DNA of 64,000 nt from Verrucomicrobiota bacterium (GTDB lineage Bacteria > Verrucomicrobiota > Verrucomicrobiia > Opitutales > Oceanipulchritudinaceae): positions 56,992 through 120,991 of the forward strand of contig JBJHBA010000013.1 of NCBI GenBank assembly GCA_050485245.1, given 5' to 3'. The notes below the pieces were generated by a model. That model was not told the origin of the DNA and ran no database searches. It saw only the letters and a program-made list of their open reading frames with translations. The position numbers and the translations under genes are program-made. Below, one piece after another: positions 11,947 to 37,955 of this stretch. Numbering within the stretch: position 1 is the stretch's first letter; each line of letters starts with the position of its first letter.

Positions 11947-12744
11947 TCAAATCGGGCGACTTTGTGGTTCGGTGACTGGCGGTAAGGACGGTTTTGATCC
12001 GGGCGGGTAACGCTCCAGAAAACGTGGCCAATCTTCGACCATGTTCTTGATCAGTTGGGCGAAGGCCTTGGTTTCGGTATCGCGCCGGACCTGATCCGCG
12101 GTTTCCCGGGTTCCCCAGGAGGTGGAGTGGGCGTGATTGCGCTCGGTGGCCTCGTAGGCTGAGTAAATGTAGCCGGTGCGCGTATCGATCAACATGGCTG
12201 TGGCCGTGGTGGTGGCGTAAATTTTCCGGTTGGGGGACAGCCCGAGGGTGATGACAGAAAGTGCCTTCCCTTTGTGCGCATCAAAGAAAACCGTATCAAA
12301 GGTGTAGAGCAGAACCAAATCCGCTTTGAGGCGGGCGGCGGAGTCCCGAATATCGCGGTCGCTCTCAATCCGATTGGGTAGGACCAAGCGGTTGAGGCGG
12401 ACGATGCCCTTGATGTGAGGCAGCTCCCCGATCGATTGCAAATGCAGTTCTTCCCCCAATTCATTGGCCAGAACTACAGTAAAACGTCCACCTCCGAAAC
12501 TGCCCCCATGCTGGCTGAGGTAGTGATTGCTGTAAGCCGTGCCCTGAACCCGCACCACCGCAATACTGGCTGGATACGGATAACTCGGCTCGAGCGCAAA
12601 TGCATCCCGCATGCTGGGAGGAGTGAACTGCTGCAAATCCGCACGGGTCCCCGGCGTGTGGTAACTTTCACATCCACTCATCAGGACGAGCAAAGGGAGT
12701 ACAAGGGCGGGGAAAATTAAAGACAGCTTTTGCATGCAGTTCAT
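11947..12744 (-). CDS. Hypothetical lipoprotein
   Basis: The internal start MNCMQKLSLIFPALVLPLLVLMSGC gives a signal peptide with a lipobox (LMSG|C). No family is recognised with confidence. The upstream part of track ORF (to 12846) is not signal-like. Confidence 0.6.
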   Translation of the reverse strand: MNCMQKLSLIFPALVLPLLVLMSGCESYHTPGTRADLQQFTPPSMRDAFALEPSYPYPASIAVVRVQGTAYSNHYLSQHGGSFGGGRFTVVLANELGEELHLQSIGELPHIKGIVRLNRLVLPNRIESDRDIRDSAARLKADLVLLYTFDTVFFDAHKGKALSVITLGLSPNRKIYATTTATAMLIDTRTGYIYSAYEATERNHAHSTSWGTRETADQVRRDTETKAFAQLIKNMVEDWPRFLERYPPGSKPSLPPVTEPQSRPI

Positions 12745-12901
12745 TCGCTTGAGAGGTTGAGAACGGGATCCAGAATAGGAACGGTGGCTATCTGTAAGAC
12801 ATTTTTCCCTGCAATTTGTTCGAAAGGAAAAGGGCTCCCGGCCCAATCCCTGGGATTTCCATTCGCCATCGACTGAATTCGTCCCCTAACTGAAGAGCGC
12901 T

Positions 12902-13741
12902 ATGAAGGATGAATCCGCTCCCGATATCCAAGCCATGCCCAAGGATGTGCAGCAGGCACAGGAAGAGGAAATGGCACTGGCCCCATTCCAGATCGTCATC
13001 CTCCTGCTCTCGATCTACGTGCTTCTGGCCATGGCCGCCCGCATCCTTCTGCCCCTCCCGGCGGACGTAAAATCCCTGCTCTACCTCATCGATACGGTCA
13101 TCTGTTTCATCTTTTTGGGCGATTTTTTCATCCGTTTCGGCAAGGCCGATCGCAAGCTGGCCTTTCTCAAGTGGGGCTGGATCGACTTTCTCGCCAGCAT
13201 CCCCTTTCTCGATCAACTCCGTTGGGCCCGCCTCGTCCGGGTCGCCCGCATTCTTTACCTTCTGCGTGGTTTCCGCTCTGCCCGGACCCTGATTTCCTTT
13301 CTCTTTCGCGACAAGCGACAAGGTGCCTTTGCCGTGGCCGCCTTCACTGCCTTGTCCTTTCTCTTTTTCTGCGCCATCGCCATCCTTGAGATCGAACGGG
13401 ACGTACCCGGCTCCAATATTCACTCCGCCGGTGACGCCCTCTGGTGGGCCTTTGTCACCATTACCACCGTTGGCTACGGCGACTTTTATCCGGTGACGAT
13501 CGAAGGCCGTCTCGTAGCCGCCGCCCTCATGCTCGTCGGCATCGGCCTCTTCGGCACCCTCTCCGGGATCATGGCCTCCATCCTCATTGGCAAGGACCAG
13601 GAGCGCGACGAAGCCCTCGTCCGCCTCGATGCCCGCACCAGCCAGATCCTCCAGCGCCTCGAACAACGCACCTGGACCCGCGAAGCCAAAAAAACACCCA
13701 CCCCTGATAGCGAAGGCCCCCGATCCGACGGAGCCGACTGA
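12902..13741 (+). CDS. 6-TM voltage-gated-type potassium channel
   Basis: Selectivity filter is TITTVGYGD. The S4-like segment RWARLVRVARILYLLRGFRSAR has Arg at every third position. Five further hydrophobic helices are present. Confidence 0.85.
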   Translation: MKDESAPDIQAMPKDVQQAQEEEMALAPFQIVILLLSIYVLLAMAARILLPLPADVKSLLYLIDTVICFIFLGDFFIRFGKADRKLAFLKWGWIDFLASIPFLDQLRWARLVRVARILYLLRGFRSARTLISFLFRDKRQGAFAVAAFTALSFLFFCAIAILEIERDVPGSNIHSAGDALWWAFVTITTVGYGDFYPVTIEGRLVAAALMLVGIGLFGTLSGIMASILIGKDQERDEALVRLDARTSQILQRLEQRTWTREAKKTPTPDSEGPRSDGAD

Positions 13742-13827
13742 TCGGACGAATCCGATGGATCAGGCGGTCAGGTCATAGCCATCAAATAAGCTTGTCGGTC
13801 CTATCGTCTCGCTTTTGCCTGCTGCTT

Positions 13828-14541
13828 ATGGACTGTCGCAAATCCAGGGAGACGCCACGGCGTTTACGGCCGAGTGGGGGCTATCGCAAACTGCAGAGTT
13901 TTCAAGTGGCCACCCTTATCTATGACGGAACCGTTTTGTTCTGTAATCGCTTTATTGATCGTAAAAGTCGGACTCACGACCAGATGGTGCAGGCCGCCCG
14001 CAGTGGTCGGCAGAACATAGCCGAAGGCAACCGTGCAGGAGCTACCAGTAGCAAATCGGAAATTCACCTAACGAATGTGGCCAGAGGAAGCCTTGAGGAG
14101 CTGCTTCTGGACTTCGAGGATTATCTGCGGCAGCGGAAGCTGGAACTCTGGAGCAAGCAGACTCTGCAAGCACAAAAGGTGAGGAAGCTGGGCCAGTTCA
14201 TTGGCAGTTCACACTCGGATCATTCAGCAGATTCGTTGCTGAAGGCACCGACTGATGCCGGAGCAAGGGCACGTGCGGAACTGTATGCACCTTGGTTGGA
14301 GCACCCCGAGGCCATGGTATCCGCCAACACCCTGATCTGCCTCATCCACCAGGCCAACTACCTGCTCGACCGGCAACTTTTGGAGTTGGAAAAGCGCTTT
14401 GTCGAAGAAGGTGGTTTTTCGGAGACGCTTGCAGCCGCCCGCATCGCCCAACGACAGGAAGCGAGGAACAGCCGCCCAAAGCGGCAGCAGCCCCGAAAGA
14501 CCAGAACTTTCCGCTCTGTCCTCGCTGTGGAGCCCTCATGA
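13828..14541 (+). CDS. Four-helix-bundle protein with 'four helix bundle suffix' region (23S rRNA IVS-protein family)
   Basis: Motifs are [71 protein letters not shown] and ..[19 protein letters not shown] at 13828; the track starts at TTG 13792. Confidence 0.75.
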
Positions 14542-14633
14542 CCCTGCGTACCGCCCGGCAGGGCAAGCAAGCCGGAAACTCTTTTTGGGGCTGCACCGCT
14601 TACCCAGATTGCAGGGGGACCCGGAAATACTGA
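14475..14633 (+). CDS. -1-frame continuation encoding a topoisomerase-type C4 zinc finger; no own start codon
   Basis: The -1 frame reads [52 protein letters not shown], a CxxC...FWGC..YPxC finger. It is entered exactly at the heptamer C_CCA_AAG (14475-14481) of the preceding ORF. The alternative is a 1-nt indel or sequencing error. Confidence 0.45.
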
Positions 14634-14677
14634 ACCCTCGGATCAGACCGATTAGACGGATCCGATCGACCACAGAA

Positions 14678-14744
14678 CATGCGCCATTTTGGCGCATGTG
14701 CTGTGCCAAGGTGCCCGCTTCTGGCGCGTGTGCACAGCACTTTT
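14678..14744 (+). promoter_or_regulatory. Paired hairpins and a direct repeat between the zinc-finger stop and clpB (terminator and/or clpB control region)
   Basis: Hairpin 1: CATGCGCCA (14678-86), loop TTT, TGGCGCATG (14690-98). Hairpin 2: GTGCTGTGC (14698-14706) pairs with GCACAGCAC (14732-40), followed by TTTT. A direct repeat TGGCGCRTGTGC occurs twice. Confidence 0.3.
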
Positions 14745-22918: not shown

Positions 22919-23035
22919 AGTGGTCATTTGTGGCTTGGAACCTGCACGATGATGCCTAGTTTCAATGCCCGTCACTCGCATGATTGAACAGGCTGTCATA
23001 TATTACCCATTGCAGCGAGCCGCCTCACCTTCCCC

Positions 23036-25003
23036 ATGAAAGCCATTAGTATCGCCCTCCGCATTGCGGATTTTCTCAAGCAATACCCCCCCTTCAATGT
23101 CATGAAAGAGGAGGATCTGGTGAAGCTGGCGGCAGAGGGCAGGGTGAAATTTCATGAAGCCGGGGAGATCATTTTTTCGCAGGGACAACCGCGCGGCCAG
23201 TATGTTTATGTCATCAATGACGGACGGGTGCGGATTGTGGAGGAAACCCCAAAGGGAGAAAGCCTGATCGACCTGCGCGGGATCGGTGACTTGCTTGGCC
23301 TGCAGGGGGTGCTCAGCGATGGACCTTATGTCAACACCGGGATCACCGAAACCGACGTCCTCCTCTATGCCTTGCCCCGGGAACAGGTGGCCAAATTGGC
23401 GGAAGACTCACCCGCCGCCCAACGCTATCTGGCCGCATACTTTTCACTCAATCCGGCTTACGGAAGAAAAAGCCATCCACCCATGCCGGGCATGCGGACC
23501 ACCGATGAAGTGATTACACCGACCACCTTGCACAAAGGGGGCTTGGTCGAAGTGGAGGCTCCCCAGCGGATTGCCAGAGAAACCCTCCATACTGCCCGTT
23601 CGGACGAACTTGCCAGGGAGGCGGCCATGCGCCTTCGCTCCAAGCGAATCGACTGTATTGTGGTGGTGGATGAAGCCGGGCGCCCTTTGGGAAAACTGAC
23701 GGATGGTGATTTGCGGGACCGGTTTATTGAAGGCCGCTTACGTGATGGTTCCACCATCGGGGATCTGATGTTCCGGGACATCGCTTTTGGCAAGCCAACC
23801 GACAGCACCGGTAAGCTGATGGTGCGCCTGACCCGGGCAGGAAAGCGATTTCTCATCATCACTGAGGATGGGACCGCGGACACACCAGCGGTGGGCATCG
23901 TTTCCGAGCGGAACCTCTTTCTGCACTACGGCCGTTTCCCCACGCTCCTCGGCGAGGCCATGTCGGAAGCTCCGGATTTTGTGGCCCTTCGGTCGATGCG
24001 GGATCGGGTGGAAGCCCTCATCCTGGAATTTCTTGAAGACCGTTCGGAAGTGGCCTGGCTGATGGAGATGAGCGGGGTGCTCAATCGCCGCCTGACCCAA
24101 CGGGTGTTGGAACTGGTCGAAGCCGATATGGCGGGAATCGGCTATCTGAAACCAAAGGTCAAATTCTCCTGGCTGATGATGGGCAGTGGGGGACGGGATG
24201 AATTGCTGATTCGCTCGGCGGTCTATCATGCCCTGATATATGAAAATCCGAAACCGGAGGAGGCCGACGCCTCACGCACTTATTTCCGGGAACTGGGACG
24301 GCGTGCTTCCGATGGCCTCCGGCAGTGCGGGTTTCTGGAAAGCGAACAAGGTGTTCTCGCCCGCAACTCCCAGTGGTGTCTGCCCTTTTCCGAAATGTGT
24401 GCCCACTACAGCGCGATGATCGCCCGTCCGCATGAAGAGAATGTCTATGATGCCCGGGACGCCTTTGACTTTCGTCCGGTCGAACACCGATCCAAGCTGG
24501 CAATGGATTTGCGTGCGCACATTACCCGGGAAATCGCCGCGCATCCCGACTTCATCCCGCAAATGGCTGCGGACTCCCTCCTCAACCAGCCTCCACGGAC
24601 CATTTTCAAGGATCAGGTGGTGGATGAGTACGGGACCCAGAACGATACCCTGGAAATCAAGTCCCACGCCTTGCTGCCTCTGGTCGATACCGCCCGGGTC
24701 TTTAATTTGGCGGCTGGTGACATGATGCGGACCGGAACCCACCGCCGCCTGCGGGCGGAGGCACGTCGAATCGAATTGGACGATCCAGCCGGAGCGGCCA
24801 TGCTCAATGAAGCGGCGGAAGCCTTTATTGTCGCCGCCTACGCCCGAACCAAGGAAGGGCTCTTGCGGGGGACTGACGGAGCGGTCATCCACCCTTCCGA
24901 CCTGGACGCGGAAACCCGCACCCTGCTGAAAACCGCCTTTCGCACCATCCTCGGCACGCTCGAATTGCTGGCCAATCGCTTCAACCTGGAATTGCGTGGA
25001 TGA
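23036..25003 (+). CDS. Cyclic-nucleotide-binding / CBS-pair / DUF294 nucleotidyltransferase-like / DUF294_C protein
   Basis: N-terminal cNMP-binding-like segment is FHEAGEIIFSQGQPRGQYVYVINDGRVRIVEE. Two CBS-like segments are present (RIDCIVVVDEAGRPLGKLTDGDL and FLIITEDGTADTPAVGIVSERNL). A GSGGRDELL segment of DUF294 type and a helical C-terminal domain follow. Confidence 0.75.
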   Translation: MKAISIALRIADFLKQYPPFNVMKEEDLVKLAAEGRVKFHEAGEIIFSQGQPRGQYVYVINDGRVRIVEETPKGESLIDLRGIGDLLGLQGVLSDGPYVNTGITETDVLLYALPREQVAKLAEDSPAAQRYLAAYFSLNPAYGRKSHPPMPGMRTTDEVITPTTLHKGGLVEVEAPQRIARETLHTARSDELAREAAMRLRSKRIDCIVVVDEAGRPLGKLTDGDLRDRFIEGRLRDGSTIGDLMFRDIAFGKPTDSTGKLMVRLTRAGKRFLIITEDGTADTPAVGIVSERNLFLHYGRFPTLLGEAMSEAPDFVALRSMRDRVEALILEFLEDRSEVAWLMEMSGVLNRRLTQRVLELVEADMAGIGYLKPKVKFSWLMMGSGGRDELLIRSAVYHALIYENPKPEEADASRTYFRELGRRASDGLRQCGFLESEQGVLARNSQWCLPFSEMCAHYSAMIARPHEENVYDARDAFDFRPVEHRSKLAMDLRAHITREIAAHPDFIPQMAADSLLNQPPRTIFKDQVVDEYGTQNDTLEIKSHALLPLVDTARVFNLAAGDMMRTGTHRRLRAEARRIELDDPAGAAMLNEAAEAFIVAAYARTKEGLLRGTDGAVIHPSDLDAETRTLLKTAFRTILGTLELLANRFNLELRG

Positions 25004-25665: not shown

Positions 25666-25810
25666 GTCAGATCCTGCCGAACCGCTTATCACGGATTTGA
25701 GGACATTTCCGCAGCCCGTTTGGGCCAATTCCGAAGAGTTGGCTTGCCTCTGAAGCGACTTCACGCTCCCTTATTTTATTTTGGGTAACCTTTAGCCGTC
25801 AGTGTTCACC

Positions 25811-26350
25811 ATGAGTCAACCGACCGACTACAACTACGACAGCAAGATCGAAGGCGATGTCATCGTATCCAAGGCGGATGCCGTCATCAACTGGGTGCGC
25901 AGTCACTCGGTCTGGCCCATGCCGATGGGGCTGGCCTGCTGTGCGATTGAGTTGATGGGCACAGGAGGCTCCCGCTTTGATATTTCGCGCTTCGGGATGG
26001 AAGTGATGCGCTTTTCACCCCGGCAGAGCGACTGTATGATCGTCGCCGGAACCGTCACCTATAAGATGGCTGAAGTTGTCCGCCGGATCTACGATCAGAT
26101 GGCTGAGCCAAAATGGGTTGTGGCGATGGGGGCCTGCGCTTCCACCGGGGGTATGTATCGAAGCTATGCGGTGCTGCAAGGAGTGGACAGAATCGTCCCG
26201 GTCGATGTCTATATCTCCGGTTGTCCGCCCCGCCCGGAAGCCCTTCTCGACGGCATGATGAAGCTTCAGGAGAAAATCCGGCAGGAACGCTCCACCGGTG
26301 GCTTGTTCCGCCAGCGGGAAACCAAGCCGCTGTCCTATCAAAATGTCTGA
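25811..26350 (+). CDS. nuoB: NADH-quinone oxidoreductase subunit B
   Basis: Motifs are [20 protein letters not shown] and [10 protein letters not shown] (N2 cluster ligands). Confidence 0.95.
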
Positions 26351-26382
26351 ATGACCGCACGCCCGGAAGAATTTTCCACGAG

Positions 26383-27018
26383 ATGACCGAACTCCTCACC
26401 CGATACGATTTCATCCAGCTCCGCGAGACCCTGGATCATCCTGCCTACAACTGCCCGCGTGATCGGGTGGTGGAGTTGCTTCAGGCTCTGCGGGATGAGC
26501 ATGGCTACGACCTGCTTTCAGATGTTACGGCCATCGATCATTACGAGGCCTCTCCACGTTTTGAAGTGGTCTATCACCTTTATTCGACCGGGCGCCATCA
26601 GTGGGTCCGGATCGTTACTCCCTGCGATGGTGATGAAGAGCCGACTTGTCCCAGCATCGTTTCCCTCTGGCCCGCTGCCAACTGGCACGAGCGGGAAACC
26701 TACGATATGCTGGGGATTCACTTTGAAGGCCACCCGGACCTGCGCCGTATCCTCATGTGGGATGGATATCCCTACTACCCCCTGCGAAAGGAATTTCCCC
26801 TGGCCGGTATCGAAACAGAGCTTCCCTCTGCGGAAATAGCCGAACGCACCCGCGCCAAGGTGGAACCTGCACCCATGATGGGGGGGCCCTTTCATTCGCC
26901 TCAGCACGGGACCATGCGTCACCGCGAGCCCAGGGCGGATGACGAGTCCTGGACCGAAACCCAGCCCAAGCAGCCTGAAGAAGCGGCGGCTCCCCAACCT
27001 AGAGATTTCAACACCTAA
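26383..27018 (+). CDS. nuoC: NADH-quinone oxidoreductase subunit C
   Basis: Motifs are YDLLSDVTAIDH, WPAANWHERETYDMLGIHFEGHPDLRRIL. Start at MTELLTRY (26383). A Pro/Glu-rich tail of about 40 aa follows. Confidence 0.9.
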   Translation: MTELLTRYDFIQLRETLDHPAYNCPRDRVVELLQALRDEHGYDLLSDVTAIDHYEASPRFEVVYHLYSTGRHQWVRIVTPCDGDEEPTCPSIVSLWPAANWHERETYDMLGIHFEGHPDLRRILMWDGYPYYPLRKEFPLAGIETELPSAEIAERTRAKVEPAPMMGGPFHSPQHGTMRHREPRADDESWTETQPKQPEEAAAPQPRDFNT

Positions 27019-27047
27019 GCCCTGCGGGGCTCACCTCAGTCTTTCCC

Positions 27048-28286
27048 ATGGCGGAATCCAAAGAAATTTCCATCGGCGACATTGGAGCACGCTCGGCAGC
27101 CGCCGAGCAGGAGTTCGGGGGCGACAAGCTCACCATTAACATGGGGCCCTCTCACCCTGCCACCCACGGGGTACTTCGGCTGGAGCTGGAACTCGACGGT
27201 GAAACGGTGACCAAATGTGATCCGGTCATTGGCTATCTCCATCGCGGAGATGAGAAAATCGCCGAAAAAATGACCTACAACCAGTTCATCCCGTACACGG
27301 ATCGACTGGATTACCTTGGTCCCATCCACAACAACGTCACTTTCGCCTTGGCGGTTGAAAAGCTCGCAGGCCTCGAAACCCCGCCCCGGTGTCAGGCGAT
27401 TCGGGTCCTTTGCTGTGAGTTGGCCCGCCTCCAGAGTCACCTTCTCGGCTGCGGAGTATTCGGGATGGATGCCGGTGCCCTCACCGTCTTCATGTACACC
27501 TTTACGGAACGGGAAAAGCTCTACACCCTGATGGAGCAGCTGACCGGTGCCCGTTTCACTACCAGCTATACCCGGATCGGTGGTCTCGCCCGCGATATTC
27601 CCGATGGCTGGCTGGGGAATGTTCTCAAAGTGATGAACGAACTGGAGCCGGTTATCACCGAAATCGACAAGCTTCTCAGCCGGAACCGCATTTTCTACGA
27701 CCGCACGGTCGATGTCGGGGTCATTTCCAGGGAGGATGCTATTGCCTACGGGCTCACCGGCCCAAACCTGCGGGCCAGCGGGGTGGCGGTGGATCTGCGC
27801 AAAGACGCTCCTTATCTCGGCTACGACCAATATGACTTCGACGTTCCCGTCGGGCAGAACGGTGATTGCTACGACCGCTGGCTGGTTCGTCTGGAGGAGA
27901 TGCGCCAATCGATCCGCATCGTCCGTCAGGTTATTGATAAGATGCCCGACGGCCCATGGTATGCGGAAGATGCCAAAAAGATTTTTGCACCCCGCAAAGA
28001 CAAGATCCTCACCAGCATGGAGGAACTCATTCAGGACTTCATGATCGTGACAGAAGGACCCCAAATGCCAGCGGGGGAAGTGTATTTTGAAGCCGAGAAT
28101 CCCAAGGGAGCGCTCGGCTTTTACATTGTATCCCATGGAGGCGGCGTTCCCTACCGGATGAAGATCCGCAGCCCCTCCTTCTGTAACCTTTCCATTCTTC
28201 CAAAGCTCTGCCTGGGTGCGATGGTGCCCGACATCCCGATCATCCTGGGCAGTCTCGACTTCGTCCTGGGAGAGTGTGACCGCTAG
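27048..28286 (+). CDS. nuoD: NADH-quinone oxidoreductase subunit D
   Basis: Motifs are NMGPSHPATHGVLRL and a C-terminal DFVLGECDR. Confidence 0.95.
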   Translation: MAESKEISIGDIGARSAAAEQEFGGDKLTINMGPSHPATHGVLRLELELDGETVTKCDPVIGYLHRGDEKIAEKMTYNQFIPYTDRLDYLGPIHNNVTFALAVEKLAGLETPPRCQAIRVLCCELARLQSHLLGCGVFGMDAGALTVFMYTFTEREKLYTLMEQLTGARFTTSYTRIGGLARDIPDGWLGNVLKVMNELEPVITEIDKLLSRNRIFYDRTVDVGVISREDAIAYGLTGPNLRASGVAVDLRKDAPYLGYDQYDFDVPVGQNGDCYDRWLVRLEEMRQSIRIVRQVIDKMPDGPWYAEDAKKIFAPRKDKILTSMEELIQDFMIVTEGPQMPAGEVYFEAENPKGALGFYIVSHGGGVPYRMKIRSPSFCNLSILPKLCLGAMVPDIPIILGSLDFVLGECDR

Positions 28287-28299
28287 ATTTTTCCCCGCC

Positions 28300-28809
28300 A
28301 TGGCATATACACCATCCGAAGCACTCGTCGCCTATGTGGCCAAGGTCGTCCCGCGCTATCCGCAGAAACGCAGCGCGGTTATGATGCTCCTGCACCATAT
28401 TCAGCGCGAAGACGGGCGCATTTCCCTCGAAGCCCAGGAATGGGTGGCAAAACAGCTAGAGATCTCGCCGATGCAGGTCCGCGAAGTCGTCACCTTTTAT
28501 CCCTACTACCGCGAACACGCCATCGGGAAGCGCTATATCCGCGTCTGCCGAACCCTTTCCTGTGCCCTTGGAGGCAGTTACAAGCTTTGCGACCAGATCT
28601 GCGCCTCCTTTGATACCAAACTCAACGAGGTTTCGCCCGACGGCCGCGTCACGGTGGAGTTCGCCGAGTGTCTCGCCAGTTGTGGAACCGCTCCGGTGAT
28701 CATGATTGACGACGACCTCCATGAGAAAGTAGACGAGGCTAAAGTCGAAGAGCTGTGCGCGAAAATCAAAGCCGAGACCCCGGCAGAAACCGCTCCCCAC
28801 GCCAGTTAA
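28300..28809 (+). CDS. nuoE: NADH-quinone oxidoreductase subunit E
   Basis: 2Fe-2S ligands are CRTLSCALGG and ECLASCGTAPV. Start at MAYTPSE (28300). Confidence 0.9.
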   Translation: MAYTPSEALVAYVAKVVPRYPQKRSAVMMLLHHIQREDGRISLEAQEWVAKQLEISPMQVREVVTFYPYYREHAIGKRYIRVCRTLSCALGGSYKLCDQICASFDTKLNEVSPDGRVTVEFAECLASCGTAPVIMIDDDLHEKVDEAKVEELCAKIKAETPAETAPHAS

Positions 28810-28823
28810 AGGAGTATCCGGCC

Positions 28824-30203
28824 ATGTTGATGTCTTTTCCCAAAAACACCGAAGCCCACCCTCTCGAACGGCGGATCATTCTGAAGAATTCCGAAAATCC
28901 GGATTTTGATCAGTCGATTGAGTGTGCTTTTCGTCACGGGGGCTATGAGATGCAGAAAAAAGCCTTCGGGATGAAGCCCGAGGAGGTGCATCAGGAAGTT
29001 CTCGACAGCGGCATCCGGGGACGCGGTGGGGCAGGCTTCCCGGCCGGGATGAAGTGGAAGTTTCTCGATCGCAAGAGTGGCAAACCGATCTACCTGATCT
29101 GCAACGCTGACGAATCCGAACCTGGCACCTTCAAGGACCGCCAGATCATGCATAAGGATCCGCACCAGTTGATCGAGGGCATGATGATCACGGCATATGC
29201 CATCCAGGCTGCCCAGGCTTTTATCTATATCCGTGAGGAGATGCCCTATGCGGCGCAGATACTCGAGGATGCCATTGAAGAAGCCCGCGCCCACAATCTG
29301 GTGGGGGACAACGTCCTCGGCAGCGGATATTCCTGTGAAATCATCGTCCACCGCGGGGCCGCCGCTTATATTTGTGGAGAAGAAACCGGCCTGATCGAGT
29401 CGCTCGAAGGCAAACGGGCCTACCCGCGGATCAAGCCGCCCTATTTCCCCGCCGCCCTTGGCCTCTACATGTGCCCGACCATCGTCAACAACGTGGAAAC
29501 CCTCTGCCACGTGCGACACGTGATGGAATACGGCGGCAAGGAATACGCCAATATCGGCACCCCGAACAACACCGGCACCCGTATCTGGTGTCTCAGCGGA
29601 CACGTCCGCAACCCCGGTTACTACGAACTCGAAACCGGGAAGGTGACATACGGACAATTGATCTTCGAAATCGGCGGTGGCCTCCGCCCCGGGCGCAGCC
29701 TGCAGGCTGTCATCCCCGGTGGATCCAGCGCCAAAGTCTGGCGGGCCGGTGAACGTTTTCAGGGCAAGCTGCGGGACGGCACTCCCTTCGACTGGGGCAT
29801 CGAAGACATTCCCCTTGATTTTGACAGTCCCATGGCGGCCGGTTCCATGAGCGGGTCTGGCGCCGTAATGGTGATCGATGACAGCGCTGACATCGTGGAA
29901 GTACTGGCCAATATCAACGCGTTTTACGCCCACGAAAGCTGCGGGCAGTGCACTCCTTGCCGCGAAGGCAGCCTCTGGATGAAAAAGATCACCACCCGGA
30001 TGGTCAATGGCGGGGCACGCGCCGAGGACGGTGAGCTGCTGGCCTCCATCGGGGATCAAATCGCAGGGCGGACGATCTGCGCCCACGGTGAGGCCTGCGC
30101 TTGGCCGACCCAGAGTTTTGTCGCCAAGTTCGGGGACAAATTCCAAGCCAAGTCCAAGGATAATGCCGCTGGAACCCATCGCAGCGAATACCGCCTCGTA
30201 TAG
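28824..30203 (+). CDS. nuoF: NADH-quinone oxidoreductase subunit F
   Basis: FMN/NADH site is GRGGAGFPAGMKW. The N3 cluster motif is ESCGQCTPCREG. Confidence 0.95.
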   Translation: MLMSFPKNTEAHPLERRIILKNSENPDFDQSIECAFRHGGYEMQKKAFGMKPEEVHQEVLDSGIRGRGGAGFPAGMKWKFLDRKSGKPIYLICNADESEPGTFKDRQIMHKDPHQLIEGMMITAYAIQAAQAFIYIREEMPYAAQILEDAIEEARAHNLVGDNVLGSGYSCEIIVHRGAAAYICGEETGLIESLEGKRAYPRIKPPYFPAALGLYMCPTIVNNVETLCHVRHVMEYGGKEYANIGTPNNTGTRIWCLSGHVRNPGYYELETGKVTYGQLIFEIGGGLRPGRSLQAVIPGGSSAKVWRAGERFQGKLRDGTPFDWGIEDIPLDFDSPMAAGSMSGSGAVMVIDDSADIVEVLANINAFYAHESCGQCTPCREGSLWMKKITTRMVNGGARAEDGELLASIGDQIAGRTICAHGEACAWPTQSFVAKFGDKFQAKSKDNAAGTHRSEYRLV

Positions 30204-30213
30204 CATTTAAATC

Positions 30214-31914
30214 ATGAGCGAGTCCTCCGATCAACTCATCACCATCAACCTCGACGGCAAAGACGTTCAGGTCCCTTCCGGGCTCAACCTGATTGAGGCC
30301 GCCGAGCAGCATAAGGTAGAGATCCCCCACTACTGCTACCATCCCAAGCTGAGTGTGCCGGGTAACTGCCGGATGTGCCTGGTTGAAATGGGAACACCGG
30401 GCATCGACCGGGCGACGGGAGAACCGATGCTCAATGAAGACGGTTCTCCCAAGATCATGTGGGTCCCCAAGCCGGTTATCGGCTGTGCCACCAAGGTTTC
30501 ACCTGGGATGCACGTCCGCACCCAGTCTCCCACGGTTAAGGAAGCCCGCGAAGGGGTGATGGAATTTCTGCTCGTCAACCACCCCCTTGATTGCCCCATC
30601 TGCGACCAAGCTGGAGAGTGCCGCCTGCAGGAGTTTGCCACCGACTACGGACGGGGTTTCTCCCGCTTCATCGAACAGAAAAACGTCAAGCCCAAGCGCA
30701 CCCGGATCGGACCGCGGGTCGTCCTCGACGACGAGCGCTGCATCCTCTGCTCCCGCTGTATCCGCTTCTGTGACGAAATCATCGGTGAGCATATCCTCGG
30801 CTTTACTGACCGCGGCAGCTATTCGACCCTGACCATCTTCCCCGGCAAGGAACTCGAGAGCAATTATTCGCTCAACACGGTCGACATCTGCCCGGTGGGA
30901 GCCCTCACCAGCACGGATTTCCGCTTTAAAATGCGGGTCTGGTTCCTCAAGGAGACTCCCTCCATCGACACCGAGTCGAGCGTCGGCTGCAACACCCTCG
31001 TGGGCAGTCGCGAAGGCAAAATCTACCGCATCACCCCCCGCCGCAACGATGCGGTCAACGATACCTGGATGCCGGATAGCGGGCGCGTACTCTATAAGCA
31101 GGTCGATTCTGACGACCGCATGACGCAATATGCCATCGACGGAAAACCCTGCTCGCCGGATGAAGCCTTTGCCCTCAGTGCGACCCTCCTGCGCAATGCC
31201 CCCATCGCGGTGGTCGGCAGTGGCCGCCTGAGTGTGGAGGAGCAGTTCATTCTCAAGTCCCTCCGCGACCGCCTGCCCGAAGGCACCCTCACTTTCCTCG
31301 TCGGACGCACCGGTGAAGAGGACGGCATGCTGATCAGCGCCGACCGCAATCCCAATGTGCGCGGAGCCCTCCTGACTGGTTTGACGGACTCCATTCCGGC
31401 CAACGATCTCAAGGAACTGGGTGCCCTCATCGATGCCGGAAAAGTCAGCACCATCCTCACGGTGGGGGAACCGCTCTGTGTTGCCGGGATCACCAAGGAG
31501 CAGATGAAGAAGGTCGATGTCGTTTTCTTGGGAACCCACCACTGCGATACCAGCCAGTTTGCCAAGGTGGAAATCCCACTGCTGACTGTCTTCGAAAAGT
31601 CGGGCACTTTCGTCAACCAGCAGTTCCGGGTGCAGAAATTCCAGCAGGCCATCCCCGGTCCCAAGGGTGTGCTTTTCGGGCTGAGCAATCTGACCCGCCT
31701 CTATCAGGCCGTGACCGGAGAGAAAACCTTTGCACCCAGCCCGGCGGCGATTTGGAAGAAAATGGGCGAAGACATCGCGGAATTTTCCGGATTCACTTTT
31801 GAAAGCATCCCTTCCACCGGACAGGTGGTTTCCGACCAGCGTTTTTCCCAGCTTCCTTTTGTGGAAGGAACTTCGCTTCATTTTGAACCCCGGAAGGAGG
31901 CTTCACCGGCCTGA
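30214..31914 (+). CDS. nuoG: NADH-quinone oxidoreductase subunit G (short form, 566 aa)
   Basis: Motifs are CYHPKLSVPGNCRMCLVE, HPLDCPICDQAGEC and RCILCSRCIRFC. Confidence 0.9.
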   Translation: MSESSDQLITINLDGKDVQVPSGLNLIEAAEQHKVEIPHYCYHPKLSVPGNCRMCLVEMGTPGIDRATGEPMLNEDGSPKIMWVPKPVIGCATKVSPGMHVRTQSPTVKEAREGVMEFLLVNHPLDCPICDQAGECRLQEFATDYGRGFSRFIEQKNVKPKRTRIGPRVVLDDERCILCSRCIRFCDEIIGEHILGFTDRGSYSTLTIFPGKELESNYSLNTVDICPVGALTSTDFRFKMRVWFLKETPSIDTESSVGCNTLVGSREGKIYRITPRRNDAVNDTWMPDSGRVLYKQVDSDDRMTQYAIDGKPCSPDEAFALSATLLRNAPIAVVGSGRLSVEEQFILKSLRDRLPEGTLTFLVGRTGEEDGMLISADRNPNVRGALLTGLTDSIPANDLKELGALIDAGKVSTILTVGEPLCVAGITKEQMKKVDVVFLGTHHCDTSQFAKVEIPLLTVFEKSGTFVNQQFRVQKFQQAIPGPKGVLFGLSNLTRLYQAVTGEKTFAPSPAAIWKKMGEDIAEFSGFTFESIPSTGQVVSDQRFSQLPFVEGTSLHFEPRKEASPA

Positions 31915-31962
31915 CGCGATGCCCGCCTTTTGGTAGTAGAGCGTAAACCATTTGCTGACAAC

Positions 31963-33048
31963 ATGATCTGGCAAGACATATTCATCGGACTGCTCAAGGC
32001 GTCTATCATGATCGGGGCGGTCATGTCCTGCGCCGGCTACGCCGTGCTCGTCGAGCGCAAGGTGGCTGCCTGGATTCAGGGGCGTCCCGGTCCCAACCGC
32101 ACGAGCCTTCCTCTGATTGGGGCACTCCCCATCATCGGCCCCTTCCTCACACGTCTGGGAGTCTTTCAACCGGCGGCCGACGGCCTGAAGTTTCTCTTCA
32201 AAGAAGAGCCCTTCCCCGGACACGTGAACAAATTTTACTACGTGCTGGCCCCGCTGGTCGCCTTCATCCCTGCGATGTTGACCATGACCGTGCTGCCGGT
32301 GGGGCAGTGGACGGTGGATGGTGTCACCCAACCCATCGTTCTGGCCAATCTCGATATCGGTATCCTCTTCATTCTGGCCGTTTCCTCTCTGGGGGTCTAC
32401 GGCATCATCCTCGCAGGATGGGCGGCCAACTCCAAATATCCTTTCCTCGGCGGCATCCGGGCCAGCGCCCAGATGATCAGCTATGAGCTGTCCCTCGCCA
32501 TGTCGCTGCTGCCGGTATTCATGTGGTACGGGGGCAGCCTCAACATCGCCTCCATTGTCGAGGCACAGTCCGGGGTCTTCCCTGTCTGGACCATACTTAT
32601 CCAGCCGCTCTCCGCCCTGATCTTCCTCGTTGCCCTCTTTGCCGAGACCAACCGTCTGCCCTTTGATATGCCCGAGTCGGAAACTGACCTTGTGGCGGGG
32701 TATAATACCGAATACGGTGCCTTCAAGTTCGGCCTCTTCTTTGTTGGAGAATACACCCACATCATCATCGGGTCGGGTGTCTTCGTCGCGCTCTTCCTCG
32801 GAGGCTGGCACATTCCCTTTGTGGAGCTGTCTTCCATGCCAGTCGGCATCCCCGGTGCCTTGCTCTCTATCGGAGCCTTTGCACTGAAGACTTTTGCCGT
32901 CGTCTTTTTCTTTATCTGGATTCGCTGGACCCTGCCGCGTTTCCGCTACGATCAGGTGATGAACCTTGGATGGAAAATCCTCCTTCCTCTTTCCGTCGCC
33001 AACCTCATCTTCTACGCGATCCTCATCGCGGTAATTGAACAATTTTAG
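31963..33048 (+). CDS. nuoH: NADH-quinone oxidoreductase subunit H
   Basis: Polytopic membrane protein. Motifs are ERKVAAWIQGRPGPNR and ETNRLPFDMPESETDLVAGYNTEY. ATG at 31963. Confidence 0.95.
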   Translation: MIWQDIFIGLLKASIMIGAVMSCAGYAVLVERKVAAWIQGRPGPNRTSLPLIGALPIIGPFLTRLGVFQPAADGLKFLFKEEPFPGHVNKFYYVLAPLVAFIPAMLTMTVLPVGQWTVDGVTQPIVLANLDIGILFILAVSSLGVYGIILAGWAANSKYPFLGGIRASAQMISYELSLAMSLLPVFMWYGGSLNIASIVEAQSGVFPVWTILIQPLSALIFLVALFAETNRLPFDMPESETDLVAGYNTEYGAFKFGLFFVGEYTHIIIGSGVFVALFLGGWHIPFVELSSMPVGIPGALLSIGAFALKTFAVVFFFIWIRWTLPRFRYDQVMNLGWKILLPLSVANLIFYAILIAVIEQF

Positions 33049-33059
33049 GAGGGATTCTC

Positions 33060-33602
33060 ATGGCTACAAAAATCGTCGAACGTAAGCCCCTCAGTCTGGC
33101 GGAAAAAACCTATCTTCCGCAGATCGTGAACGGTCTCAAGATCACGATGCAGAACATGTTCAAACCCACTGTGACCCTCGAGTATCCGGAAGAACGTCCG
33201 GATATTCCTCCCGGTTACCGTGGGGTTCCGACTCTGGTCAAAGATCCCAACGGGCGCACCAAGTGCGTCTCCTGTCAGCTCTGTGAGTTTGTTTGCCCAC
33301 CCAAGGCCATTCGAATCACCCCGGGTGAAATCTCCGGCAGCTCTGAATATGCCCATGTCGAAAAGGCACCGCAGGAATTTGATATCAATATGCTGCGCTG
33401 CATTTACTGCGGCTTCTGCCAGGAGGTATGCCCTGAGGAGGCAATTTTTCTCAAGGATATGTTTTCCCTCTCCGGTTACACCCGGGAGGAAATGGTCTTT
33501 AAAAAGGAAAAGCTCCTCGAACTGGGCGGAACGCTTCCCGACAGGCATTACAAATGGGACAAGAAAAAAGCCGCTGAAGCGTCGGCTGGCGCCCATCACT
33601 GA
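33060..33602 (+). CDS. nuoI: NADH-quinone oxidoreductase subunit I
   Basis: Two 4Fe-4S motifs, CVSCQLCEFVCP and CIYCGFCQEVCP. Confidence 0.95.
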   Translation: MATKIVERKPLSLAEKTYLPQIVNGLKITMQNMFKPTVTLEYPEERPDIPPGYRGVPTLVKDPNGRTKCVSCQLCEFVCPPKAIRITPGEISGSSEYAHVEKAPQEFDINMLRCIYCGFCQEVCPEEAIFLKDMFSLSGYTREEMVFKKEKLLELGGTLPDRHYKWDKKKAAEASAGAHH

Positions 33603-33628
33603 TCTCTCAATATCCAACGCAACTTTCC

Positions 33629-34147
33629 ATGGACTGGCTCTTCTTCATTCTCGCGGCAATCACGCTGATCCCGGCGTTGTTTGTGGCGGTCGCCCGTAAT
33701 CCGGTCAATGCGGTGATGAACATGATTATCTCCCTCGTCGGTATGGCCGGGCTGATGGTCTTGCTCGAAACCTACTTCCTCGCGGTCTTGCAGATTATCG
33801 TCTACGCCGGGGCCATCATCGTGCTCTTTCTTTTCATCATCATGCTGATCGATGCGGAAAGGGCACCGCCCGCCAGCCTTCTGCGCACCCTTGCTGCCGG
33901 AGTTGGACTCTTACTCCTTCTGGTCGGTGCCTGGGCACTGAGTTTCTCCGGCCAGGTCGGCCCTTTTCCCGCGATTTCCACTCCGGCCCCGATGGCTGCC
34001 TCCAAGGTCTTCGGAGTCGAGCTGTTCACCCGCTTTATGCTGCCGTTTCAGGTTGCCGGATTCATGCTGTTGATCGCCATGATCGGAGTTATTGTGGTGA
34101 GCAAGAAGCACCTTGAAACCGATTCGAAGGAAGGAGGTCAGGCGTGA
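33629..34147 (+). CDS. nuoJ: NADH-quinone oxidoreductase subunit J
   Basis: 5-TM protein in the conserved operon position. Motif [25 protein letters not shown]. Confidence 0.9.
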
Positions 34148-34464
34148 GCATCGAACTGTCCCACTACCTTTTTGTGGCCAGCGCGCTGTTTGCCATCGGC
34201 TTCTTCGGCGTGCTCCTGCGGCGCAACACCCTCGTCATTTTCATGAGTCTGGAACTCATGCTCAGTGCCTCTATCCTGGCACTGGTGGCTTTTTCCCGTT
34301 TCCATTCCACCCCGGAAGCCGCCCTCTACAGCGGCAATGTCTTTGTCCTATTCATAATTGCCATTGCCGCCTGTGAGGTGGCGGTTGGCCTCGCCATCAT
34401 CGTGGCCCTCTGGCGTCGCCGCCAGACCGTCGATGTGGCTGAACTCGCGGAGATGAAAAACTAA
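34144..34464 (+). CDS. nuoK: NADH-quinone oxidoreductase subunit K
   Basis: 106 aa with 3 TM segments. Motifs are LMLSASIL and [19 protein letters not shown] start overlaps the nuoJ stop. Confidence 0.9.
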
Positions 34465-36350
34465 TGGTCCCGCAACTGCTCACTACCATTCTACTCAGCC
34501 CGCTGGCTGCGGCCGGTATGATCTGGCTTTTCGGGCGGAGCCACCACAACCTTGCCGCCGGTCTCTCCGTCCTCGCGGCCGGTGTGGCCATGGCCTCAGC
34601 CCTCTACCTCCTGCTGATTGCCTGGGATGGCAACCCGTTCCTGTCCGCAGGGATTGAGTGGCTGACGCTGGGAGAATTCACCATTTCCTTTGGCTATCTG
34701 CTCAACCCGGTGTCCGCCGCCATGTTGCTGGTGGTGACCTTTGTCGGGTTCTGGATCCATGTCTTCAGCCTTGGCTACATGCAGGGGGATCCGGGCAAGG
34801 GTCGCTTCTTCGGCGGGCTCTCCATCTTCATGTTCTCGATGCTTGGCATCGTCCTCGCCGACAACCTCTGGATGGTCTTCATCTTTTGGGAACTGGTCGG
34901 CTTCAGCTCCTACATGCTGATCGGTCACTATCTCAACGACGAGGCCGGGGCCGCCTCCCGGAAGGCTTTCATCGCCAATCGGGTGGGGGACTTCGGGTTC
35001 CTCCTCGGTATCATCCTGGTTCAGTGGCAGTTCGGGACCACCAGTTTTGCTGCGCTTGAAGCCGCCGGAACCAGCCTTTCCACTGTGGCCGGACTTCTCC
35101 TTTTCTGCGGAGTTCTCGGGAAATCGGCACAGATGCCTCTTCACGTCTGGCTGCCGGACGCAATGGCGGGCCCCACCCCGATCTCCGCCCTCATCCACGC
35201 GGCCACCATGGTGGCAGCCGGGGTCTTCCTCCTCGCCCGGCTCTTCTTCGTCTTTTCGCCCGATGCCCTTTCCCTCATTCTCTGGGTGGGCACAGTGACC
35301 GCACTGAGCGCCGCCATCTGGGCTTTTGCCCAGCGCGACATTAAGAAGATCCTCGCCTATTCAACGCTTTCTCAGCTGGGCTTCATGGTCGCCGCCTTCG
35401 GGCTCGGAACCCTCTATGGGCGTGAACACGCCGCAGAGGGGATGGCCCTCTATTACGGAGTCGGAGCGGCCATGTTCCACCTCACGACCCACGCCTTTTT
35501 CAAGGCACTGCTCTTCCTCGGCTCCGGCTCGGTCATCCATGCCTGCCACCATGAGCAGGATATCTTCAAAATGGGCGGGCTGCTCAAGAAAATGCCCATT
35601 ACCGGCACGACCTTTCTCATTGGGGTGATCGCCATCGCCGGGGTGCCTTTTATCTCCGCCGGCTTTTTCAGCAAGGACGCCATCCTCTACATCGCCATGC
35701 AGCAAAACCAGGCGGTCTTTGGCATCCTTACCTTCACCGCCCTGCTCACCGCTGCCTACATGGGGCGCCTCTTCTTTATCGCCTTTCTCGGTACACCCAA
35801 CAGCGAGCATGCCGACCATGCGCATGAATCTTCCTGGACGATGTGGCTGCCATTGGTGGTCCTGGCCATTTTCTCTGTTGGAGGCGGTTACATGGTGCTC
35901 TATCCCGAGACCGTTCACCTCGCACTGGACGGCTATGTGCCGCATCCGGTGGGGAACGAACACTGGCTGTTTGTGGGTCTCTCCCTTGCCTTGGCCGCGC
36001 TCGGTCTGCTCGGGGCCCGTCTGTTCTATGGGGTTGGCTCTGCTGAGGATCGTCTCGAAGCCAAAGTGCGTCCACTGTGGGCGTTCTCCCGCTCCCGCTT
36101 TTACTTCGATGAAATTTACAGCTGGTATATCGAGAAAGTCCAACAGCGCTTTGCCAACATGCTGGATTTCATCGACGCCATCCTGATCGGCGGACTGGCC
36201 GTGCGTGGCCCCGCTGGGATCATGGGCCTCTTTGGCCTGCTCGGGCGCAGTGCCCATACCGGCAATATCGGCGCCTACGTCTGGTGGTTCTTCATCGGAC
36301 TTCTCTTCATTCTGGGCTTTTCCACCGGGCTTTTTGCCCAGCTATTTTAG
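34464..36350 (+). CDS. nuoL: NADH-quinone oxidoreductase subunit L
   Basis: Antiporter-like subunit. Motifs are WELVGFSSYMLIGHY and GKSAQMPLHVWLPDAMAGPTPISALIHAATMV. TAATG overlap with nuoK. Confidence 0.95.
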   Translation: MVPQLLTTILLSPLAAAGMIWLFGRSHHNLAAGLSVLAAGVAMASALYLLLIAWDGNPFLSAGIEWLTLGEFTISFGYLLNPVSAAMLLVVTFVGFWIHVFSLGYMQGDPGKGRFFGGLSIFMFSMLGIVLADNLWMVFIFWELVGFSSYMLIGHYLNDEAGAASRKAFIANRVGDFGFLLGIILVQWQFGTTSFAALEAAGTSLSTVAGLLLFCGVLGKSAQMPLHVWLPDAMAGPTPISALIHAATMVAAGVFLLARLFFVFSPDALSLILWVGTVTALSAAIWAFAQRDIKKILAYSTLSQLGFMVAAFGLGTLYGREHAAEGMALYYGVGAAMFHLTTHAFFKALLFLGSGSVIHACHHEQDIFKMGGLLKKMPITGTTFLIGVIAIAGVPFISAGFFSKDAILYIAMQQNQAVFGILTFTALLTAAYMGRLFFIAFLGTPNSEHADHAHESSWTMWLPLVVLAIFSVGGGYMVLYPETVHLALDGYVPHPVGNEHWLFVGLSLALAALGLLGARLFYGVGSAEDRLEAKVRPLWAFSRSRFYFDEIYSWYIEKVQQRFANMLDFIDAILIGGLAVRGPAGIMGLFGLLGRSAHTGNIGAYVWWFFIGLLFILGFSTGLFAQLF

Positions 36351-36356
36351 TCAGCC

Positions 36357-37943
36357 ATGACCGCACTTTTCTCCCTCGCATTCTTCGATGCCACTGCTGA
36401 GTTTCTCCGTTCAGTAGATGCCGCGGCCCTGGGACGGATCAATACCACCGTCCTGCTGCTTTCGATCCTGACCCCGCTCTGTGTGGCCATTGCCCTGGCG
36501 ACTACCGGCAAGGTTACCAACGCAGCTATTCGTGGAGCCGGCCTCTTTGGTTTTTTGGTTCCTTTTCTCGGGGCAACCTGGCTGTTCGTCTCCTACCAGA
36601 CGATTGTTCAGGATGGAGGCTACGCCTTTCTGTTTATCGCGCCAACCGGACTGGAATTTATCGGCATCCACCTGTTTCTCGGCCTCAACGGTATTTCCAT
36701 GCCGCTCTTCTGGATGGCCTCCATCGTCGGTCTGGCTGCCGGATGGTACGGACTGCGGGAAGACAAGGATCGCTTGCGGATTTTTGCCATCCTGCTGCTG
36801 ACTATGCAAACAGGCCTGATGGGTCTCTTTGCCTCGATCGATATCTTCTTCTTTTACTTCTTCCACGAATTCGCCCTTATCCCGACTTTCATCATGATCG
36901 CGATGTGGGGTGGACGTGGCCGCAAGGTGGTGGCGCTGGAACTGACCATCTACCTGACCGTCGGCGCCATGCTGACTCTGGCCGGACTGATTGCCCTATT
37001 CATCTTCAGCGGAGCGTCCTCCTTCGACATGATCACCTTGCGTCAGTCCATTGCTGACATTCCGGCGGAGAAAACCGTTTTTGCCCTGCTCTTGGTCGGA
37101 TTCGGTATCCTTGTTTCGCTCTTTCCCTTCCACACCTGGGCTCCGCGTGGTTATGCCACGGCTCCGGCCTCCGTCGCCATGCTGCATGCGGGGGTACTGA
37201 AAAAATTCGGCCTGTATGGCTTGATCCAGATCGCCCTCCCACTGCTTCCCGAAGGCCGTGAATTCTGGGCTCCAACCCTGATGTGGCTGGCCATCGGCAA
37301 TGTGCTCATCATAGGCTTTGTCACGCTGGCCCAGCGTGACCTCAAATACATGCTGGGGAATGCCTCTGTCATGCACATGGGCTACGCCTTCCTCGGCCTG
37401 TTTGCCTATTCAACCGTCGGGGTGGGGGGAGCCGTCCTCATGCTCTTTGCCCACGGCCTGTCCATCGCCCTCTTGTTCCTGCTCGCCGACGTGATCGAGC
37501 ATCGGGCCGGAACCACCGAGTTCAGCGAACTGGGTGGGCTCTCCAAGAGTGCTCCGGTGCTGATGGCATTTTTCGTTGCCGGGACCATGGCCAGCATCGG
37601 CCTGCCGGGTTTTGCCAACTTCTGGGGAGAAATGGCCATCTTCGTGGCATTGTTCAAATCGTCCACTCCCTGGGTGGTGGTCCCGGCGGTGGCTGGGATC
37701 GTGATCAGCGCCATCTATGGTCTTCGGGCCGTTTCCCGGATTTTCTTCGGTGCATCCAAGCGCACTTACGACGGGGGTGATCTTACCACCCAGGAAAAAT
37801 TCCCCGCCTTTCTCCTTTTGATCGCCCTATTGGTGGTCGGCTTCTGGCCCCGCCTTTTCTCCGACAATCTGGATGCCTCCATTCAGGCCAACGGAGTACC
37901 ATCTTCCACCGCTACCGTCGTCGAGACGGCTTTATCCGAGTAA
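36357..37943 (+). CDS. nuoM: NADH-quinone oxidoreductase subunit M
   Basis: Antiporter-like subunit with HTWAPRGYATAPASVAMLHAGVLKKFGLYG, in the conserved operon position. Confidence 0.9.
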   Translation: MTALFSLAFFDATAEFLRSVDAAALGRINTTVLLLSILTPLCVAIALATTGKVTNAAIRGAGLFGFLVPFLGATWLFVSYQTIVQDGGYAFLFIAPTGLEFIGIHLFLGLNGISMPLFWMASIVGLAAGWYGLREDKDRLRIFAILLLTMQTGLMGLFASIDIFFFYFFHEFALIPTFIMIAMWGGRGRKVVALELTIYLTVGAMLTLAGLIALFIFSGASSFDMITLRQSIADIPAEKTVFALLLVGFGILVSLFPFHTWAPRGYATAPASVAMLHAGVLKKFGLYGLIQIALPLLPEGREFWAPTLMWLAIGNVLIIGFVTLAQRDLKYMLGNASVMHMGYAFLGLFAYSTVGVGGAVLMLFAHGLSIALLFLLADVIEHRAGTTEFSELGGLSKSAPVLMAFFVAGTMASIGLPGFANFWGEMAIFVALFKSSTPWVVVPAVAGIVISAIYGLRAVSRIFFGASKRTYDGGDLTTQEKFPAFLLLIALLVVGFWPRLFSDNLDASIQANGVPSSTATVVETALSE

Positions 37944-37955
37944 TCCATTTTTGCG

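Follow-up and report, generated by a model that had tools for sequence, protein, structure and literature searches.

A frameshift-prone frame break between the suffix domain and the zinc ribbon of a four-helix-bundle gene in a Verrucomicrobiota bacterium

Results

A frame break in the linker between two conserved domains

The stretch of DNA analyzed here (hereafter, the window) comprises 64,000 nucleotides (nt) from a Verrucomicrobiota bacterium of the Oceanipulchritudinaceae (assembly GCA_050485245.1, contig JBJHBA010000013.1, positions 56,992 to 120,991 of the forward strand). It contains a gene for a four-helix-bundle protein in which the DNA carries a frame break, located in the hypervariable linker that separates the suffix domain from a C-terminal Top1-type zinc ribbon. 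An in-frame slippery heptamer, C_CCA_AAG, lies at the break, with a Shine-Dalgarno (SD)-like tract on its 5' side and a stable predicted helix on its 3' side. We put at about even the chance that −1 slippage of the ribosome decodes the break at a meaningful rate and that both isoforms are made, whether this is selected or merely tolerated.

The zero-frame open reading frame (ORF; frame 1) extends from an ATG at 13828 to a TGA at 14539–14541 and encodes 237 amino acids (aa), as given in a preliminary description of this DNA made from the sequence alone. The encoded protein matched the four-helix-bundle model TIGR02436 (32.1 bits; cutoff 24) and the suffix-domain model TIGR04258 (71.7 bits; cutoff 40), whereas the Pfam model PF05635, at 29.3 bits, fell short of its gathering score (33.8). 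The −1 frame (frame 3) is open over 14256–14633 and encodes a zinc finger (CPRCG...) that matched PF01396 (Zn_ribbon_Top1; 37.9–39.5 bits, gathering score 32). The same description had proposed that a complete Top1-type finger ending at 14633 lacks a plausible start of its own, and we reached the same conclusion: the sole −1-frame start codon 5' of the finger is a TTG at 14292, which has no SD sequence and lies 75 codons before the finger. The heptamer was likewise found where it had been reported, in frame within the overlap of the two ORFs (codons 14473–14481), and translation with a −1 slip at this site gives the predicted fusion of 268 aa, versus 237 aa without slippage.

Homology in frame 1 ends with the suffix domain (~14457), and homology in the −1 frame starts no later than the residues DQNFP (~14500), and certainly by the first cysteine (14517). 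The linker between the suffix domain and the finger varies in both length and sequence across the family. In a DNA alignment with the homologues with the longest linkers, the window had a net excess of two bases, equivalent to −1.

The sequence of the break was the same in a second assembly. A Logan contig (L001; SRR31311414), produced with a different assembler, was 100% identical to the window over 12376–14605 (2,230 nt) and encoded the same 237-aa product; it was the only contig recovered by exact-protein look-ups of the gene and its neighbor. Because a single sequencing run is the only known source of the organism, the two assemblies probably share reads. The window has 26 long ORFs free of interruptions, the longest of 1,093 codons, and 22 other ORFs have Pfam matches with complete domains (e.g. 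BCCT, 1–483/485; Complex1_49kDa, 1–271/271), none of which looks broken. The rate of indel errors in the contig is therefore low. Contig L001 stops at 14605, within the finger and 4 nt past the 3' end of an inverted repeat described below; this end may reflect a graph branch due to strain variation or a repeat located just downstream.

The zinc finger is intact

On a profile of the family built from 45 homologous fingers, the finger of the window scored 76.8 bits, functional fingers having leave-one-out scores of 65.8–81.4 (median 77.2). Every invariant residue of the finger is kept in the −1 frame, and no stop codon interrupts the finger frame. In terms of a decaying pseudogene, the disruption relative to intact homologues is present, and no further downstream lesions (stop codons or lost conserved residues) were found. 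The finger is intact, and either the break arose recently or expression of the finger continues.

Comparison with the family

The protein search covered 5.8 billion clusters; 8,000 candidates were scored, all of which were significant. The family is very large, and the best 120 of these 8,000 matches are 250–355 aa long. PF01396 lay within a single protein in all of the best 120 except the window's own. We fetched 80 loci from GTDB species genomes for the comparison of reading frames (88 fetched loci overall). About 30 of the 80 (within L043–L081) stop where the suffix domain ends, and none of their frames encodes a finger.

The domain content and order of the gene are those of the four helix bundle suffix domain-containing proteins (TIGR02436, TIGR04258 and Zn_ribbon_Top1), to many of which, from Verrucomicrobiota, Desulfobacterales and other groups, it is 60–68% identical. 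It differs from them in that its finger lies in another frame and its linker lacks the GATC-type 9-nt repeats usual in members. It consequently falls outside the subfamily with a C-terminal Zn_ribbon_Top1 in the same ORF, its finger being intact but in the −1 frame. Apart from the window's own cluster, the best relatives were 67–68% identical, and none above 68% was present in the 5.8 billion protein clusters. Two DNA scans of JGI metagenomes, one anchored on the flanks of the linker and the other on the heptamer-helix cassette, returned 0 matches, and an exact look-up of the window's called protein (P0001) gave no record.

The slippery heptamer and the SD-like tract

Heptamers of the X_XXA_AAG type are found in frame once per 14,753 codons in the 26 long ORFs of the window, and the chance of one within the 20-codon junction, as estimated from codon usage, is ~0.3%. 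For any heptamer of the X_XXY_YYZ type in the 14-codon junction, ~5% is expected. The presence of the heptamer at the junction exceeds chance. C_CC.A_AA.G is the most efficient heptamer measured in Escherichia coli, reaching 54% with the IS3 pseudoknot (PMC4066793), and the insertion sequence (IS) elements of species with tRNA-Lys(CUU) still use such motifs (PMC4066793; see also PMC5009743). The SD-like purine tract, GGAAGCGAGGAACA, has its GAGG core at 14463–14466, and, of 6,142 coding positions across the window, only 4.9% pair equally well with the anti-SD.

The only other in-frame X_XXA_AAG in the 26 long ORFs is CCCAAAG at 23248–23254, in a cNMP-binding/CBS/DUF294 nucleotidyltransferase gene (22988–25003); no helix of at least 9 base pairs (bp) was found 3' of that site. 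At the junction itself, a second in-frame shift-prone tetramer, (CG)A_AAG (14496–14499), lies inside the 5' arm of the helix, and a slip there would also lead to an intact fusion. The heptamer core also sits in the 5-nt loop of a small local palindrome, GCCGC-CCAAA-GCGGC (14471–14485), which in wider folds competes with the six outermost pairs of the extended inverted repeat.

The downstream helix

The preliminary description mentioned a weak hairpin downstream from the heptamer. That hairpin corresponds to just the inner part of a larger predicted structure closed by a 12-bp helix, in which GCAGCCCCGAAA pairs with UUUUGGGGCUGC (14583–14594) through 11 Watson-Crick pairs and one G-U pair, enclosing an interior of 84 nt. 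The helix was present in every minimum free energy (MFE) and centroid fold made, with pair probabilities of 0.79–1.0 in contexts of 159, 301 and 501 nt and a predicted duplex energy of −20.9 kcal/mol. Stimulatory structures normally begin 5–8 nt 3' of the heptamer (PMC4066793), and this one starts 5 nt past it. Contiguous helices of 12 bp or more, with a spacer of 4–9 nt, follow only 0.074% of the positions of the window and, by the same criterion, 0.15% of 1.39 million control positions (window plus 88 loci). Two other matches to a heptamer plus helix were encountered in the control DNA (loci L007 and L010), both antisense or intergenic and not recoding sites. An Rfam search identified neither a frameshift element nor any other family.

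An inverted repeat and its possible origin

The 5' arm of the helix belongs to a 20-nt, roughly 90% inverted copy of the FWGCTA codons of the finger. In the resulting extended inverted repeat, AAGCGG-CA-GCAGCCCCGAAA (14479–14498) is aligned with the reverse complement of 14583–14601, which reads AAGCGG-T-GCAGCCCCAAAA. The alignment score of 26 was higher than that of all 2,000 shuffled sequences (maximum 25) and that of all 51 homologous genes (maximum 21, median 15). The inverted copy begins at the AAG of the heptamer and continues through the spacer, where pairing cannot aid slippage; the outer six pairs had a predicted probability of only ~0.02 in wider contexts. Since the 3' arm consists of the family-conserved FWGC codons, it is the lineage-specific 5' arm that came to match.

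Template switching is known to create hairpins de novo (PMC8794818), and the inverted copy looks like the footprint that a template switch would be expected to leave. By such an event, the usual GATC-repeat linker could have been exchanged for one differing in length by a number not divisible by three. It would leave unexplained both the in-frame CCCA located just upstream (~0.5%, estimate) and the SD-like tract. The observation that excision of the 20-nt arm restores the frame was dropped as evidence, since any excision at the junction with a length of 2 modulo 3 does likewise.

Table 1. Features of the gene, the frame break and the flanking repeats (window coordinates).
Feature	Position	Strand	Support
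Upstream flank: degenerate 9-nt-periodic GATC-type repeat	13713..13771	+	Direct repeat; family-wide pattern
Zero-frame ORF, 237 aa: four-helix bundle, suffix domain and 19-aa out-of-frame tail	13828..14541	+	Same 237-aa product on Logan contig L001
Four-helix-bundle core, residues 24-93	13897..14106	+	TIGR02436; PF05635 below gathering score
Four-helix-bundle suffix domain, residues 164-210	14317..14457	+	TIGR04258
SD-like purine tract GGAAGCGAGGAACA; GAGG core 8 nt 5' of heptamer	14457..14470	+	Anti-SD duplex −7.9 kcal/mol
Slippery heptamer C_CCA_AAG, zero frame (codons CGC CCA AAG at 14473-14481)	14475..14481	+	PMC4066793, PMC5009743
Extended inverted repeat: AAGCGG-CA-GCAGCCCCGAAA (14479-14498) versus reverse complement of TTTTGGGGCTGC-A-CCGCTT (14583-14601)	14479..14601	+	Local alignment
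−1-frame segment: linker, Top1-type zinc ribbon (Cys codons from 14517), stop TGA 14631-14633	14481..14633	+	PF01396, family finger hidden Markov model
5' arm of 12-bp helix, GCAGCCCCGAAA; 5 nt past heptamer, in lineage-specific linker	14487..14498	+	MFE and centroid folds
Zero-frame stop TGA; overlaps finger-frame ATG 14538-14540 (invariant Met238) as ATGA	14539..14541	+	
3' arm of helix, TTTTGGGGCTGC, the family-conserved FWGC codons of the finger	14583..14594	+	
Downstream flank: 9-nt-periodic GATC-type repeat, direct copy of the upstream one	14632..14672	+	Direct repeat

Gene neighborhood, hosts and repeats

In the window, the gene is flanked by unrelated ion channel and ClpB genes, neither of which was present at any of the 88 fetched loci. 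Its neighbors elsewhere include an ABC transporter with an RND pump, or a PQQ propeller protein with an alcohol dehydrogenase, and at every locus the family member is a lone gene between unrelated housekeeping genes. Two copies of the gene were observed at some loci (L056, and L026, in which the second copy lies directly downstream); no paralogue was found in the window. The hosts of the best relatives belong to Verrucomicrobiota, Desulfobacterales, Geobacter, Acidobacteriota, Chloroflexota and Planctomycetota; a protein of 250–300 aa with 55–68% identity was present at loci L002–L089, with Omnitrophota also among the hosts. The family looks like a horizontally mobile single-gene cassette. A PADLOC scan matched no defense family.

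The family gene is characterized by 9-nt-periodic GATC repeats (GATCNGNCN), which are read inside the ORF as DRS, DPT and DQT peptides. Across 45 loci, 126 of the 150 GATC-N5-GATC pairs lay within the gene ±150 nt, a region accounting for only 14% of the sequence, and the repeats clustered at four module borders: the 5' flank, the loop between bundle and suffix domain, the linker between suffix domain and finger, and the 3' flank. The repeats are kept whether they are coding or not, which suggests a role at the DNA level. In the window, degenerate copies remain in the flanks and have been lost from the linker.

Promoter and terminator scans found nothing. Between the gene and clpB (14671–14705) there is a hairpin of 16 bp (CACAGAACATGCGCCA ttt TGGCGCATGTGCTGTG; 94% complementary, 3-nt loop); it has no T-run, and the terminator scan therefore makes no call for it. 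The window also contains a complete-looking nuo (NADH dehydrogenase) operon on the + strand (25796–39470), with subunits B, C, D and E identified with Pfam and further ORFs of sizes, and sizes only, fitting I, J, K, L, M and N.

Discussion

How the break might be decoded

In a family in which the gene is otherwise always a single ORF, the break corresponds to a net change of −1 or +2 nt. The elements around it form a cassette resembling that of dnaX: an SD-like GAGG, C_CCA_AAG 8 nt further on, a 5-nt spacer and a stable 12-bp helix. Most ribosomes would be expected to terminate at 14541, yielding the finger-less protein of 237 aa, and a minority would slip by −1 on CCA-AAG once the helix reaches the entrance of the mRNA channel, yielding the full-length protein of 268 aa. 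In such a slip, the peptidyl-tRNA-Pro would re-pair from CCA to CCC, and the tRNA-Lys from AAG to AAA. What the sequence shows is a frame break, three cis-elements and an intact finger; that slippage takes place, and how often, is inferred.

The joint expectation for heptamer, helix and SD-like tract at one junction by chance is ~2 × 10−7, rising to perhaps 10−6 to 10−5 if the helix is of template-switch origin. Among frameshifted genes, the prior for genuine non-classical recoding is, by our own estimate, ~10−3 to 10−4, and both joint expectations are small compared with this prior. Against these odds must be set that two of the tests were post hoc and that conservation is lacking altogether. 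The naturally finger-less loci make two products plausible, and single-base deletions in E. coli are suppressed at 1–10% even without programmed signals (PMC10861913).

Several observations weigh against a selected site. The preliminary description proposed a programmed frameshift giving two isoforms: the heptamer, the helix, the SD-like tract and the undecayed finger are consistent with this proposal, but the two-frame layout is not conserved among the relatives compared. Alignment of orthologous loci, which that description had put forward as a check, gave the opposite of what it had anticipated for recoding: the finger was in frame with the rest of the gene at 49/49 finger-bearing homologous loci, it was out of frame only in the window among the fetched loci, and no X_XXA_AAG, the efficient class, was found in the linkers of the homologous loci examined, all from relatives no more than 68% identical. 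Lacking conservation, the site is a candidate for, and not an established member of, the known −1 frameshift sites, and, with the organism known from a single run, any selection on it is hypothetical. The region 14482–14600 folds with an energy of −47.2 kcal/mol, which is unremarkable relative to shuffled sequences (z = −1.63), and 13.7% of GC-matched native windows fold equally well. The helix and SD tests were defined after the structure had been seen, making their P values optimistic. The spacing of the SD-like tract, 8–9 nt, is at the lower edge of the range of 9–14 nt published for SD-like stimulators (PMC5009743). AAG and AAA are used about equally. In a search for the tRNA-Lys repertoire, no tRNA gene was found in the window and 60 homologous loci yielded only tRNA-Met and tRNA-Ser. 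Finally, pairing that reaches beyond the helix, across the spacer and as far as the AAG, is more in keeping with a templated inverted copy than with selection, and the helix and the frame break could both stem from one template switch.

Truly selected, programmed recoding accounts for less than half of the even chance that we assign to slippage as a whole; the term "programmed" is so far a hypothesis, and "frameshift-prone frame break" holds. A related possibility is that of a newborn recoding site, in which a single template switch, by copying the FWGCTA codons of the finger inverted into the linker, would have broken the frame, made the stimulatory helix and completed C_CCA_AAG, with selection now keeping the arrangement for supplying the two natural architectures of the family, finger-less and finger-bearing, in a fixed ratio from one gene. 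We consider this scenario unlikely, if too substantial to set aside.

Alternative explanations

The strongest competitor of slippage is a simple truncating mutation of recent date. An indel in the low-complexity linker, or a minor rearrangement there by template switching, would have moved the zinc ribbon out of frame, after which only the 237-aa protein would be made in meaningful amounts and the finger would be a young relic destined to decay. The heptamer, SD-like tract and helix would then be coincidences or by-products of the mutation. Frame breaks in bacterial genomes are mostly mutations, not recoding events, and elsewhere the family has an undivided ORF throughout. The linker is the most variable part of the gene and is built of repeats, finger-less members occur naturally, such that loss of the finger may be tolerated, and a recent event would likewise leave the finger intact. 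The 20-nt inverted copy containing the 5' arm is also consistent with a template-switch footprint (PMC8794818). On the other side, a single event that made the helix would still have needed an in-frame CCCA already in place for the heptamer, which we estimate at roughly 0.5%, the SD-like tract adds another coincidence of ~5%, and the chance expectation for the whole, per junction, is the low joint value given above. Such a cassette, whatever its origin, should also slip in translation systems like that of E. coli (PMC4066793). We hold this explanation to be a serious one, its probability falling somewhat short of even.

A sequencing or assembly error, by which one base more or fewer in 14458–14516 would hide a true single ORF, is improbable. 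The junction does contain short homopolymer runs (e.g. CCC, AAA and CCCC), and the Logan contig, from the only run known, probably derives from the reads of the deposited assembly; but these runs are merely 3–4 nt long, two different assemblers agree over 2,230 nt, and neither the 26 uninterrupted long ORFs nor the 22 neighbors with complete Pfam domains suggest a contig prone to such errors. Separate translation of the finger, by independent initiation or by termination-reinitiation at the ATGA of 14538–14541, appears highly improbable: the zero-frame stop TGA does overlap a finger-frame ATG, as in a classic translational-coupling overlap, but that ATG encodes the invariant Met238 within the finger, reinitiation there would give a product without the first CxxC pair, and the overlap probably arose by chance; the −1 frame has just one other start, the TTG at 14292, 75 codons upstream and without an SD sequence. 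Transcriptional slippage was ruled out on general knowledge, the runs being of only 3–4 nt.

Relationship to known frameshift systems

The candidate slippage site resembles that of E. coli dnaX (tau/gamma) in its SD-like element, X_XXA_AAG heptamer and stem-loop after a spacer of ~5–6 nt, the SD element and the stem-loop being the stimulators of dnaX (PMC5009743). It differs in several respects: the dnaX shift leads to a shorter product at a site conserved across many bacteria, whereas here the shift would lead to a longer product from a singleton, and the dnaX heptamer is A_AAA_AAG, in contrast to C_CCA_AAG followed by a helix closing an 84-nt interior. The slippery site of E. coli copA is also C_CCA_AAG. 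Like the gene described here, copA is a chromosomal, non-mobile gene, and it yields two proteins, CopA and CopA(Z), from one mRNA by means of a downstream structure (PMC6182138, PMC9548414); its stimulator is a pseudoknot, its shifted product a short truncated chaperone and its support experimental, whereas the site in the window is known from sequence alone.

In the OrfA-OrfAB arrangement of elements of the IS3/IS911 type, a −1 shift similarly joins an upstream domain to a downstream one without its own start, at heptamers of the X_XXA_AAG class, and an SD-like stimulator is present in ~56% of IS elements (PMC5009743, PMC4066793). The two-frame layout defines the IS family, whereas here it is an exception among single-ORF genes, with no transposase. 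The gene may also be compared with compensated ("savior" or leaky) indels, in which an indel in the DNA is partly reversed by ribosome slippage near the lesion (PMC10861913; concept, PMC5009743). Those usually lack a dedicated stimulator, whereas the lesion in the window falls together with a highly efficient heptamer and a helix at suitable spacing.

Significance

To our knowledge, few bacterial chromosomal −1 frameshift sites have been confirmed outside dnaX, insertion sequences and phages. If slippage does occur as proposed, the site would be a new chromosomal −1 site in a widespread gene family of unknown function, and would point to separate roles for the forms with and without the finger. 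If template switching gave rise to the helix, the gene would provide a rare snapshot of a complete frameshift cassette arising in one mutational step. If the break is merely a fresh mutation, it would serve as a caution that a perfect-looking slippery site with its stimulator can arise without being programmed.

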